Shown one piece after another: positions 26,106 through 30,392 of a stretch of 64,000 bases of DNA. Position 1 is the stretch's first letter, and each line of letters begins with the position of its first letter. The notes beneath the pieces are model-generated. The model was not told the DNA's origin. It was given only the letters and a program-made list of their open reading frames with translations, and did not search any database. The DNA is from Escherichia coli (GTDB lineage Bacteria > Pseudomonadota > Gammaproteobacteria > Enterobacterales > Enterobacteriaceae): assembly GCF_003334305.1 (NCBI RefSeq), contig NZ_QOWS01000016.1, one strand, 5' to 3'. A program made the position numbers and the translations under genes.

Positions 26106-27338
26106 ATGCAAAATAAATTAGCTTCCGGTGCCAGGCTTGGACGTCAGGCGTTACTTTTCCCTCTCTGTCTGGTGCTTTACGAATTTTCAACCTATATCGG
26201 CAACGATATGATTCAACCCGGTATGTTGGCCGTGGTGGAACAATATCAGGCGGGCATTGATTGGGTTCCTACTTCGATGACCGCGTATCTGGCAGGCGGG
26301 ATGTTTTTACAATGGCTCCTGGGGCCGCTGTCGGATCGTATTGGTCGCCGTCCGGTGATGCTGGCGGGTGTGGTGTGGTTTATCGTCACCTGTCTGGCAA
26401 TATTACTGGCGCAAAACATACAACAATTCACCCTGTTGCGCTTCTTGCAGGGCATAAGCCTCTGTTTCATTGGCGCTGTGGGATACGCCGCAATTCAGGA
26501 ATCCTTCGAAGAGGCGGTTTGTATCAAGATCACCGCGCTGATGGCGAACGTGGCGCTGATTGCTCCGCTACTTGGTCCGCTGGTGGGCGCGGCGTGGATC
26601 CATGTGCTGCCCTGGGAGGGGATGTTTGTTTTGTTTGCCGCATTGGCAGCGATCTCCTTTTTCGGTCTGCAACGAGCCATGCCTGAAACCGCCACGCGTA
26701 TAGGCGAGAAACTGTCACTGAAAGAACTCGGTCGTGACTATAAGCTGGTGCTGAAGAACGGCCGCTTTGTGGCGGGGGCGCTGGCGCTGGGATTCGTTAG
26801 TCTGCCGTTGCTGGCGTGGATCGCCCAGTCGCCGATTATCATCATTACCGGCGAGCAGTTGAGCAGCTATGAATATGGCTTGCTGCAAGTGCCTATTTTC
26901 GGGGCGTTAATTGCGGGTAACTTGCTGTTAGCGCGTCTGACCTCGCGCCGCACCGTACGTTCGCTGATTATTATGGGCGGCTGGCCGATTATGATTGGTC
27001 TATTGGTCGCTGCTGCGGCAACGGTTATCTCATCGCACGCGTATTTATGGATGACCGCCGGGTTAAGTATTTATGCTTTCGGCATTGGTCTGGCGAATGC
27101 GGGACTGGTGCGATTAACCCTGTTTGCCAGCGATATGAGTAAAGGTACGGTTTCTGCGGCGATGGGAATGCTGCAAATGCTGATCTTTACCGTCGGTATT
27201 GAAATCAGCAAACATGCCTGGCTGAACGGGGGCAACGGACTGTTTAATCTCTTCAACCTTGTCAACGGAATTTTGTGGCTGTCGCTGATGGTTATCTTTT
27301 TAAAAGATAAACAGATGGGAAATTCTCACGAAGGGTAA
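26106..27338 (+). CDS. mdfA: MFS multidrug efflux transporter MdfA/Cmr
   Basis: 410 aa; 12-TM MFS profile; matches MdfA N-terminus [20 protein letters not shown]. Confidence 0.9.
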
Positions 27339-27748: not shown

Positions 27749-28564
27749 TTATTGGTCAAATGGCGCTTCGTGTTTAAGCACTTTATCGATCACATCCAGT
27801 ACGCCTTCACGGTTATTGGAGCCTGCCCGGTATTTTGCCGCTGCGACGACCGCATTGCCGGCATTTTCCATTGCAAAACTAAAGCCTGCCTGACGCAGCA
27901 TCTCAATATCGTTACCGCCATCGCCAAAGACCACCACTTCGCTGTCGTCTATTCCCCATAATTTCTGCAGTTGGCGAAGGCCATTGGCTTTATGTACGCC
28001 GGGGATAATCAGATCGATGCTGCCGTTGCCGGTGTGGACCGGCACCATAATATCGCCGATGGCCTCATGTAATGCTTTTTGTACTTGTGGAATCAGTTCA
28101 TCGGAAAGATTCAGGCCAAACTTAAAGAAGATATCCTCTAAGTTGTCAAAGTTATCGACGTATTCCAGACGGTGATAATACATTTCCGCCACCGTTTTCA
28201 TGGCATCGTCATATTTTTTGAGCGTATAGGCGCTATTTTTTCCGCAGGCAATAATTTCCACTTCCGGGCGCGTCAGCAAATGTTCCACGACAGTAGTAAA
28301 CGCATCCTTCGACAGCTCGCCATTAAAAACATCTTTGCCTTCGCTCACTACCCAGCCGCCGTTTTCAGCCACAAAGGCAATTTCATTCGCAATTTCAGGG
28401 AAGAAAGAGATCAACTGATAATATTGATTCCCGCTGGCGACTACAAAGCGAATTCCTTGTGCTTTCATTTGCTGATACTGAGCCATAAACCGCTCACGGT
28501 TATAGGTTTTTTGATCGCTTAAGAAAGTACCATCCATGTCTACCGCAATTAATTTAATGCTCAT
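27749..28564 (-). CDS. ybjI: HAD-superfamily (Cof-type) phosphatase, paralog of ybiV
   Basis: ATG 28564 gives 271 aa ([15 protein letters not shown]); high identity to YbiV visible by eye. Confidence 0.85.
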   Translation of the reverse strand: MSIKLIAVDMDGTFLSDQKTYNRERFMAQYQQMKAQGIRFVVASGNQYYQLISFFPEIANEIAFVAENGGWVVSEGKDVFNGELSKDAFTTVVEHLLTRPEVEIIACGKNSAYTLKKYDDAMKTVAEMYYHRLEYVDNFDNLEDIFFKFGLNLSDELIPQVQKALHEAIGDIMVPVHTGNGSIDLIIPGVHKANGLRQLQKLWGIDDSEVVVFGDGGNDIEMLRQAGFSFAMENAGNAVVAAAKYRAGSNNREGVLDVIDKVLKHEAPFDQ

Positions 28565-29772
28565 CAACTATTCTCCATCGCCGTCTGCGTTTTGGTATCG
28601 GGTTTGGCGACGGCTTTCGCGACAATAGCCGCGAGAATAACCAGCGCCAGTACAACCAGCATTGCACTACGTAATCCATAATGTTCGCCGAGATAGCCCA
28701 GCAGCGGCGGCCCGACGAGGAAAGCCAGATAACCGGTCGTTGCTACCACACTGACGCGGGTTGGTGCATCGGGGCCGGTATCGCTGGCGGCAGAAATGGT
28801 CAGCGGGAAGCCCAGCGAGGCACCCAGTCCCCAGAGTACAACAGACACCCCAGCGACCCAGGCGCTATCGACAAAAATAATCAGCCCAATACCCAACGCC
28901 CCCATTAGTGCACTGGCCCGAACCACGGCAACGCGACTGTAACGGTCGATGAACCAACCGCCGGTGAAGCGTCCAACGGTCATCCCCAGGGTAAAACCGG
29001 CATAAATCAGCGAGCCGGAAGTAGGGCTAAAACCGTGACCGTCAACCATTAATAAGGGTAACCAGTCGTTGGCAGAACCTTCGGCAAAGGCCATCGCCAG
29101 CACCACAACACCTATCAGCAGCAACTGGATATCGCGATAAAAAGGAATGCCTTTTTCGCCATGCTGGGTGCCATCGGCAGCATTTTTGCCCGTACCGTCA
29201 GGGATTGCCTGAATGGCGATATAAATAGGCGCGATACCTACCAGCGCCGCCAATAAAATGTGCACCGTTGCCGGAACGCCAAAGGCCGTCAGTGCCATCC
29301 CGACACCAGCGCCTGCCAGCGTGCCCAGGCTATAAAAACCGTGCATCATTGGCAAAACCGTTTTATTCATTTCTCGCTCAACGGCGGCACCTTCAACGTT
29401 TATCGCCACTTCCGCAGAACCAAAACTTGCCCCAAAGACGCCGAGACCAACGGCAAAGAGCAGGGGCGATGTCAGCCAGAGTGCCAGACTTAATATCATC
29501 ATCCCGATCAATGCGCAGGACATCGTGACCAGGATGACATTACGCGTGCCAAAGCGTTTCACTAACCACGCCGAGCAGAGAATACCGCTCATCGAACCGA
29601 TCGACAGACCAAAGAGAACACCGCCCATTTCAGCGATCGAGACAGAGAGAATATCGCGGATAGCAGGCGTACGGGTTGCCCAGGACGCCATTAACAGGCC
29701 TGGCAAAAAGAAGAACATAAACAGCGCCCAGGTTCGGCGTTTCAATGCATTACGTGAAGAATTTACGGTCAT
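28564..29772 (-). CDS. ybjJ: MFS-family inner membrane transporter
   Basis: 402 aa, 12-TM hydrophobic profile; stop overlaps ybjI start. Confidence 0.85.
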
Positions 29773-29815
29773 AGATCACGTCAAAATAAGAAGAGGGAAG
29801 ACAACATTAGCAAGG

Positions 29816-29835
29816 TTGTGTACATTTGTACACAA
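29816..29835. promoter_or_regulatory. Perfect palindrome TTGTGTACA-TT-TGTACACAA in the ybjJ/rcdA divergent region; candidate RcdA operator
   Basis: 9-bp perfect inverted repeat with 2-bp spacer, about 20 bp upstream of the rcdA start; typical dyad site for a TetR-family autoregulator. Confidence 0.5.
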
Positions 29836-29855
29836 TTGCAGAGAGAGGAAATGAC

Positions 29856-30392
29856 ATGCGTCGCGCTAACGATCCGCAACGGCGAGAAAAAATTATCCAG
29901 GCCACGCTGGAGGCGGTGAAACTTTACGGAATACATGCTGTTACGCACCGCAAAATTGCTACCCTTGCCGGGGTACCGTTGGGATCGATGACCTACTATT
30001 TTTCAGGAATTGATGAGTTGTTGCTGGAGGCGTTCAGCAGTTTTACTGAGATTATGTCCCGGCAATATCAGGCATTTTTTAGCGATGTTAGTGATGCTCA
30101 AGGCGCATGCCAGGCTATCACCGATATGATCTACAGCTCACAGGTTGCAACGCCGGATAATATGGAGCTGATGTACCAGCTCTACGCGCTGGCTAGCCGA
30201 AAACCGCTATTAAAAACGGTAATGCAAAACTGGATGCAGCGCAGTCAGCAAACGCTCGAACAATGGTTTGAACCCGGAACCGCCCGCGCGCTTGATGCGT
30301 TTATTGAGGGGATGACGCTGCATTTTGTCACCGACCGTAAGCCGCTATCGCGCGAGGAGATTTTGAGGATGGTTGAGAGGGTTGCAGGGTAG
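29856..30392 (+). CDS. rcdA: TetR-family transcriptional regulator RcdA
   Basis: ATG 29856 gives 178 aa starting [21 protein letters not shown] with a TetR HTH. Confidence 0.85.

Follow-up and report, generated by a model that had tools for sequence, protein, structure and literature searches.

The window analyzed here, a stretch of 64,000 nucleotides from Escherichia coli, contains two divergently oriented genes separated by a spacer of 83 bp (29773-29855). On the + strand lies rcdA (ybjK; 29856-30392), identified by its open reading frame, annotation, Pfam and PDB matches as the gene of a TetR-family regulator of 178 amino acids. Its product contains the Pfam domains TetR_N (PF00440, E = 2.2e-7) and TetR_C_31 (PF17940, E = 2e-9) and is nearly identical to the E. 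coli RcdA structures 5x5i, 7acl, 7acm, and 7aco in PDB (E about 1e-115). The biologically sensible start codon is the ATG at 29856 (MRRANDPQ...), and the listed upstream TTG at 29826 falls inside the dyad described below. On the - strand, ybjJ (28564-29772) encodes an MFS transporter of 402 amino acids, the repressed target of the regulator. This gene was assigned by its open reading frame, its annotation and weak NCBIfam matches, all of them sub-threshold and spread over several MFS families. Downstream of it is ybjI (27749-28564, - strand), the second gene of ybjJI, encoding 5-amino-6-(5-phospho-D-ribitylamino)uracil phosphatase according to its open reading frame, annotation, and the literature (PMC3535384). 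Since the stop codon of ybjJ and the start codon of ybjI overlap (TGATG, window 28562-28566), the two genes form an operon, and the overlap suggests that their translation may be coupled. A transporter and this phosphatase make an odd functional pair under the control of RcdA. The gene names given in the original prediction, ybjJ for the MFS transporter and rcdA, match the RefSeq annotation in E. coli genomes sharing 2.2 kb with the window at 100% identity, and in the complete genomes with this identity the gene order along the stretch is ybjI, ybjJ, rcdA, and ybjL.

Within the spacer, positions 29816-29835 read TTGTGTACATTTGTACACAA, a perfect 9-2-9 dyad (TTGTGTACA-TT-TGTACACAA) with 9-nt arms that are 100% complementary and 2 nt between them; the palindrome had been claimed at exactly this place. 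The distances claimed along with it, approximately 20 bp to rcdA and approximately 45 bp to ybjJ, agree with the coordinates, as 20 nt separate the dyad from the ATG at 29856 and 43 nt separate it from the - strand ATG at 29772. The symmetry alone is weak evidence of function, because some perfect 9-2-9 inverted repeat is found in approximately 30% of dinucleotide-preserving shuffles of the window. The 20-mer itself occurs once in the window and in none of 100 shuffles, a trivial test, which covers this one sequence only. When arms of 9 nt or longer with spacers of 0-10 nt are counted, the window holds 16 registers of perfect inverted repeats versus 3.7 expected, and its perfect short-spacer repeats are mostly G+C-rich and hairpin-like. 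Among the others are TTATCTTTT-T-AAAAGATAA at window 27292-27310, which is A+T-rich with a 9-1-9 layout, and the perfect inverted repeats AGGTTGGCA-A-TGCCAACCT at 3334-3352 and CAGCCCACAT-GG-ATGTGGGCTG at 57480-57501. The dyad stands out from chance because it lies in a short spacer between divergent genes, is invariant across 80 species, and has been shown in published work to be bound.

Binding and regulation by RcdA

The existence of an RcdA operator between ybjJ and rcdA was published in 2012 (PMC3535384) and is part of the curated E. coli regulatory literature. Using purified His-tagged RcdA (then YbjK) in genomic SELEX, Shimada et al. recovered the palindrome TTGTGTACAttTGTACACAA (2012, MicrobiologyOpen, PMC3535384), which sits in a 72-bp overlap of SELEX clones and is identical to window positions 29816-29835. 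The ybjJ/rcdA spacer was among the most frequent SELEX-clos targets of RcdA, and DNase I footprinting at low RcdA concentration yielded one clear protection in the spacer (PMC3535384). The consensus unit of binding, the RcdA box, was given as TTGTnnACA and is palindromic at the ybjJ-rcdA locus (PMC3535384). In later papers of the same group, ybjJ/ybjK was again among the SELEX targets of RcdA (PMC5934670, PMC6134199). With the same 20-bp sequence, locus, regulator, and target operon, the dyad is the same object as the published E. coli K-12 RcdA operator. We accordingly annotate 29816-29835 as the RcdA operator, an 'RcdA box' palindrome, on the basis of its sequence and its match to the published site (PMC3535384).

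On Northern blots, ybjJI mRNA was present only in the rcdA mutant, and lacZ fusions in the rcdA mutant showed higher activity of the ybjJ promoter and much lower activity of the rcdA promoter, from which Shimada et al. concluded that RcdA represses the ybjJI operon and positively autoregulates rcdA (PMC3535384). Both experiments proposed in the original prediction, footprinting with RcdA and reporter fusions in an rcdA mutant, thus have published outcomes in its favor, with RcdA protecting the site from DNase I and, in the rcdA mutant, ybjJ going up and the rcdA promoter going down (PMC3535384). The reading of the dyad as a TetR-type operator that controls both the regulator and the transporter is borne out by the SELEX, footprint, and expression data, except that the published autoregulation is positive and not the classical negative one. 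Overall, it is very probable that RcdA (YbjK), a TetR-family protein, has its high-affinity operator at the dyad, within the divergent control region of ybjJ and rcdA in E. coli.

The 2012 paper assigns the 72-bp palindrome fragment in two ways: the body text attributes it to 22 tfaX-appY clones and the legend of Figure 1 to ybjJ-rcdA (PMC3535384). A search of the K-12 MG1655 tfaX-appY region (NC_000913.3 580000-588000, locus L085) for the palindrome with up to 3 mismatches gave no match. The legend of Figure 1 is therefore right and the body text mixed up, and at this mismatch level K-12 580000-588000 has no further copy near appY, where the 2012 text would put one upstream of the gene.

Three overlapping matches to the unit box TTGTNNACA lie within the dyad (29816 on the + strand, 29826 on the + strand, and 29827 on the - strand). 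As TGTACA is itself palindromic, an alternative reading of the dyad is that TTGTnnACA is directly repeated in it every 10 bp, which may bear on the tandem arrangements reported at other RcdA targets. Searches for further RcdA sites across the whole window gave no excess, with 6 matches to TTGTNNACA versus 7.6 expected by chance, and 7 matches to the 9-mer at no more than 1 mismatch versus 11.5 expected. RcdA has been described to spread cooperatively over DNA and to have approximately 30-40 other targets including csgD and stress genes (PMC3535384, PMC6134199), so it is not a simple one-operator repressor.

Conservation of the operator in E. coli and across Enterobacteriaceae

The 30-mer at 29811-29840 was present in 5423 of 5426 complete E. 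coli genomes, being exact in 4249, with one difference in 137 and with two differences in 1037. In K-12 derivatives such as DH10B and C600, the 30-mer around the dyad was 100% identical. We sampled seven strain sequences that differ in this 30-mer or in the wider 40-mer at 29806-29845 (P15-25, E41-1, UPEC 536, EC09, FUJ80154, Trh52, and UPEC 26-1). In all seven, changes were confined to the flanking positions 29810, 29815, 29816, 29839, 29840, and 29843, and the core at 29818-29832 was unchanged. The common type with two differences (1037 genomes, including UPEC 536, E41-1, and UPEC 26-1) has GAC in place of GGT at 29814-29816. This replaces the outermost base of the left arm (T to C) and turns the dyad into an 8-2-8 one.

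Beyond E. coli, a scan of species-representative genomes with the RcdA protein yielded 80 loci from approximately 20 genera, with RcdA identities of 67-98%. They covered Escherichia, Citrobacter, Klebsiella, Raoultella, Enterobacter, Kluyvera, Kosakonia, Lelliottia, Leclercia, Phytobacter, Pseudocitrobacter, and others, and also Salmonella arizonae and diarizonae. The window and these 80 loci made up a position table of 81 sequences. The dyad motif was found upstream of rcdA in all 80 loci, and the position table and the anchored alignment delimited an invariant core, GTGTACA-TT-TGTACA (29818-29832). Within it, TGTACA-TT-TGTACA (29819-29832), the central TT included, was identical in 81 of 81 sequences, and 29818 was G in 80 of 81. 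Its mirror position, 29833, was C in 34 sequences and T in 47, and the two outermost positions of each arm drifted. Full 9-nt complementarity was seen in 28 of the 81 sequences and 6-nt arms alone in 47; the perfect 9-2-9 form is limited to Escherichia and some relatives, and the functional core is therefore a 6-2-6 or 7-2-7 dyad. There was essentially no conservation outside 29799-29835 in the anchored alignment of the 80 loci. In 76 of the 80 loci the spacer contained two TGTACA hexamers, i.e., a single dyad. On the protein side, the N-terminal DNA-binding region of RcdA had a mean column identity of 0.85 versus 0.78 for the rest of the protein, and residues 28-35 (VTHRKIAT) and 41-45 (PLGSM) were invariant.

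This pattern bears on two other explanations of the dyad. One is that the 5' leader of the rcdA or ybjJ mRNA folds into a hairpin at the dyad which acts on stability or translation. A stem of 8-9 bp can indeed be folded on either strand (-13.5 and -12.7 kcal/mol; z = -4.4 and -5.6), and when C29833 becomes T, the only substitution often seen in the inner stem, a G-U pair with G29818 would still form on the + strand. Against this, no compensatory double changes were found among the 81 sequences, the complementarity of the outer arms was lost in 47 of them, and loop and stem bases were equally invariant, which argues for a constraint on the sequence rather than on the structure. Moreover, neither mRNA would hold the whole hairpin, because the predicted transcription starts fall inside or beyond the dyad, and the dyad had no Rfam match at E values up to 1, no T-run, and no terminator call. 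We therefore regard the hairpin as extremely unlikely.

The other explanation, a chance palindrome or the site of another regulator, for example a CRP-like protein, has hardly any probability left. A 9-2-9 repeat does turn up in about 30% of shuffled windows, but the invariance across 80 species excludes chance for this one. TGTGT...ACACA superficially resembles the CRP half-sites TGTGA/TCACA; however, a CRP site is TGTGA-N6-TCACA, and here 8 nt instead of 6 separate the symmetric halves TGTGT and ACACA, while the register with N6 gives TGTGT/GTACA, which matches at 4 of 5 and 3 of 5 positions. Furthermore, direct binding of RcdA has been published (PMC3535384).

The position of the RcdA operator relative to the two genes was then compared among the loci. 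A ybjJ homologue was divergent from rcdA in 79 of 80 loci, and the remaining locus ends early. The distance from the dyad to the ybjJ start codon was 42-46 nt in 78 of these 79 loci and 52 nt in one. The distance from the dyad to rcdA was 19-24 nt in 69 loci and 53-120 nt in 11 species, comprising Salmonella arizonae and diarizonae, the Klebsiella oxytoca group, K. indica, Raoultella, and two others. The 11 long gaps (L025, L026, L028, L034, L042, L052, L061, L062, L065, L067, and L081) hold unrelated, lineage-specific sequence, with the distance between dyad and ybjJ unchanged. As only the gap between dyad and rcdA grows, the position of the operator is fixed to the control region of ybjJ and not to rcdA. 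Judged from these sequences, Enterobacteriaceae with the gene pair have throughout kept both the operator and its placement with respect to ybjJ.

One locus in the set, L070 (CACSKA010000002.1), is titled Chryseobacterium sp. 18061 and has an Enterobacteriaceae-type ybjJ-dyad-rcdA arrangement with an RcdA 68% identical. Near the dyad, its spacer is very similar to the one in L066 (Citrobacter sp. 18056) from the same study. The assembly of L070 is probably mislabelled or contaminated.

Predicted divergent promoters and a proposed switch

Adjoining the dyad, GACAACAnTAGCAAG (29800-29814) is conserved as a second block among the 81 sequences. This block, annotated as GACAACAtTAGCAAG, is read here as putative core promoter elements. 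Within it, G29800, A29803-C29805, T29808, A29809, and C29811-A29813 were invariant in 81 of 81 sequences, and positions 29807 and 29810 varied. On the - strand, sequence and conservation point to an extended -10 element of the ybjJ promoter, TGcTAATGT (29804-29812), with TG at 29812-29811 and the hexamer TAATGT at 29809-29804. Its TG, T at -12, A at -11, and T at -7 were invariant in 81 of 81 sequences, and the 'n' position (29810) and one position of the -10 hexamer (29807) varied freely; we infer an extended -10 promoter because this is the pattern of variable and invariant bases expected of one. The corresponding -35 element is predicted by its spacing and its invariance in 81 of 81 sequences to be TGTACA on the - strand (29827-29832; four of six matches to TTGACA), that is, the right half-site of the dyad, with 17 nt between it and the -10 hexamer. 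A predicted -35 of ybjJ within the dyad fits the finding that RcdA represses this gene (PMC3535384). For the rcdA promoter on the + strand, the candidate -35 element is AAGACA (29798-29803), in which GACA is invariant or nearly so and which lies 17 nt from the candidate -10 element TACATT (29821-29826), located at the dyad center and invariant in 81 of 81 sequences. Based on consensus matches and conservation, the dyad would thus overlap both divergent core promoters.

A generic scan of the spacer for sigma-70 promoters and terminators, with a threshold of 9 of 12 promoter positions, found neither anywhere in the spacer. The predicted promoters were missed by the scan because they score 8 of 12. 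The only promoter-like site it returned, TTCACC-17-GATAAT (window 29892-29920, - strand), lies inside rcdA, as does one terminator-like site on the - strand of the coding region. We rejected this intragenic site as the ybjJ promoter, since a score of at least 9 of 12 was kept in only 3 of 80 orthologous loci, and it is probably a chance match.

The overlap raises the question of whether the dyad might be conserved for core promoter function only (ybjJ -35 and rcdA -10), with the binding of RcdA being incidental. The invariant bases do coincide with plausible hexamers of both divergent promoters, and the adjoining block at 29800-14 is conserved just as strongly even though it lies outside the dyad. 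Nevertheless, substitutions are usually tolerated in promoter hexamers, whereas here 14 positions in a row, the central TT and spacer bases among them, were invariant in 81 of 81 sequences. In addition, the dyad symmetry, the SELEX enrichment, the footprint, and the rcdA-dependent expression require an operator role (PMC3535384). A purely promoter-based constraint is therefore very unlikely, and most likely the promoter and operator roles of the dyad coexist.

Given both roles, we propose that a dimer of RcdA would occupy the 20-bp site with one helix-turn-helix on each TGTACA half-site. The site would be shared by two promoters, covering the -35 and spacer of ybjJ and the -10 and +1 of rcdA, and a dimer on 29816-35 would extend from about -19 to -38 of the ybjJ promoter and from about -18 to +2 of the rcdA promoter. 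Bound RcdA would exclude RNA polymerase from the ybjJ promoter, and in this geometry the repression of ybjJI would be explained by occlusion of the promoter. YbjJ, an MFS pump for tolerance to imidazolium ionic liquids, would be turned on once a mutation, or presumably a ligand, releases RcdA. In line with the route by mutation, two strain-engineering papers report that loss-of-function mutations and deletions of rcdA lead to imidazolium ionic-liquid tolerance, and there rcdA is described as a predicted regulator of the MFS pump ybjJ (PMC5691611, PMC6174563). With regard to ligands, those published for RcdA are very weak (TMAO with a Kd of 7 mM, and Tris), and acetate is reported to raise, not lower, its DNA binding (PMC6134199). 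The induction of ybjJ by approximately 3-fold with [C2mim]Cl (PMC4077768) is only suggestive of a release of RcdA by ligand.

The predicted geometry meets a difficulty at rcdA. If the -10 of rcdA does lie within the dyad, binding should repress rcdA, as opposed to the activation seen with the published reporter. The published positive autoregulation could reflect competition between the promoters, an effect of the reporter context, or an unusual mode of activation. A more encompassing model, which we consider possible but doubtful, is that the single dyad works as a two-way switch and is part of both promoters, with autoregulation arising either from an unusual activation over the -10 or from relief of competition between the interdigitated promoters, and that the module is ancient, fixed in Enterobacteriaceae, and anchored to ybjJ.

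The additions made here to the published operator are incremental. They consist of a footprint across genera, the finding that the dyad is anchored to ybjJ, an inferred geometry of the promoters, and a corrected reading of the 2012 body text; the 2012 paper gives neither the cross-genus conservation nor the promoter geometry (PMC3535384). Engineering of biofuel strains makes use of RcdA/YbjJ, the native route by which E. coli tolerates ionic liquids. The footprint sets GTGTACA-TT-TGTACA as the minimal invariant operator and suggests the places of both promoters, and it could aid the design of operator and promoter variants as well as the explanation of positive autoregulation by a TetR protein.

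Comparison with other TetR-family modules

The nearest analogue is EilR/eilO/EilA of Enterobacter lignolyticus ('Jungle Express', PMC6127294), where a TetR-family repressor is divergent from an MFS pump for imidazolium ionic liquids, as in RcdA/YbjJ. Like the RcdA dyad, eilO is a palindrome with a 2-bp center embedded in both divergent promoters, those of the RcdA system being predicted. The half-sites of both operators end in ACA by the center (...TTGGACA-CG-TGTCCAA... in eilOc and ...GTGTACA-TT-TGTACAC... for RcdA). On the other hand, eilO is a 24-bp, 11-2-11 palindrome (AAAGTTGGACA-CG-TGTCCAACTTT) with two copies per spacer, whereas the RcdA spacer has one dyad with a different half-site. 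The inducers also differ, those of EilR being cationic dyes active at nanomolar-to-micromolar concentrations and the published ligands of RcdA being very weak. EilR/eilO was rejected as an orthologous system, as EilR (5vl9) matches residues 5-68 of RcdA only, i.e., the helix-turn-helix (E = 1.5e-4).

Like RcdA, the classical TetR/tetO and QacR-type modules pair a TetR_N helix-turn-helix regulator with a divergently transcribed gene for efflux or transport, and a palindrome in the short spacer serves as operator over the promoters, those of the RcdA system being predicted. The autoregulation of TetR is negative, as opposed to the positive one reported for RcdA (PMC3535384). Unlike TetR/tetO, RcdA also spreads cooperatively, has approximately 30-40 further sites, and regulates csgD and stress genes.
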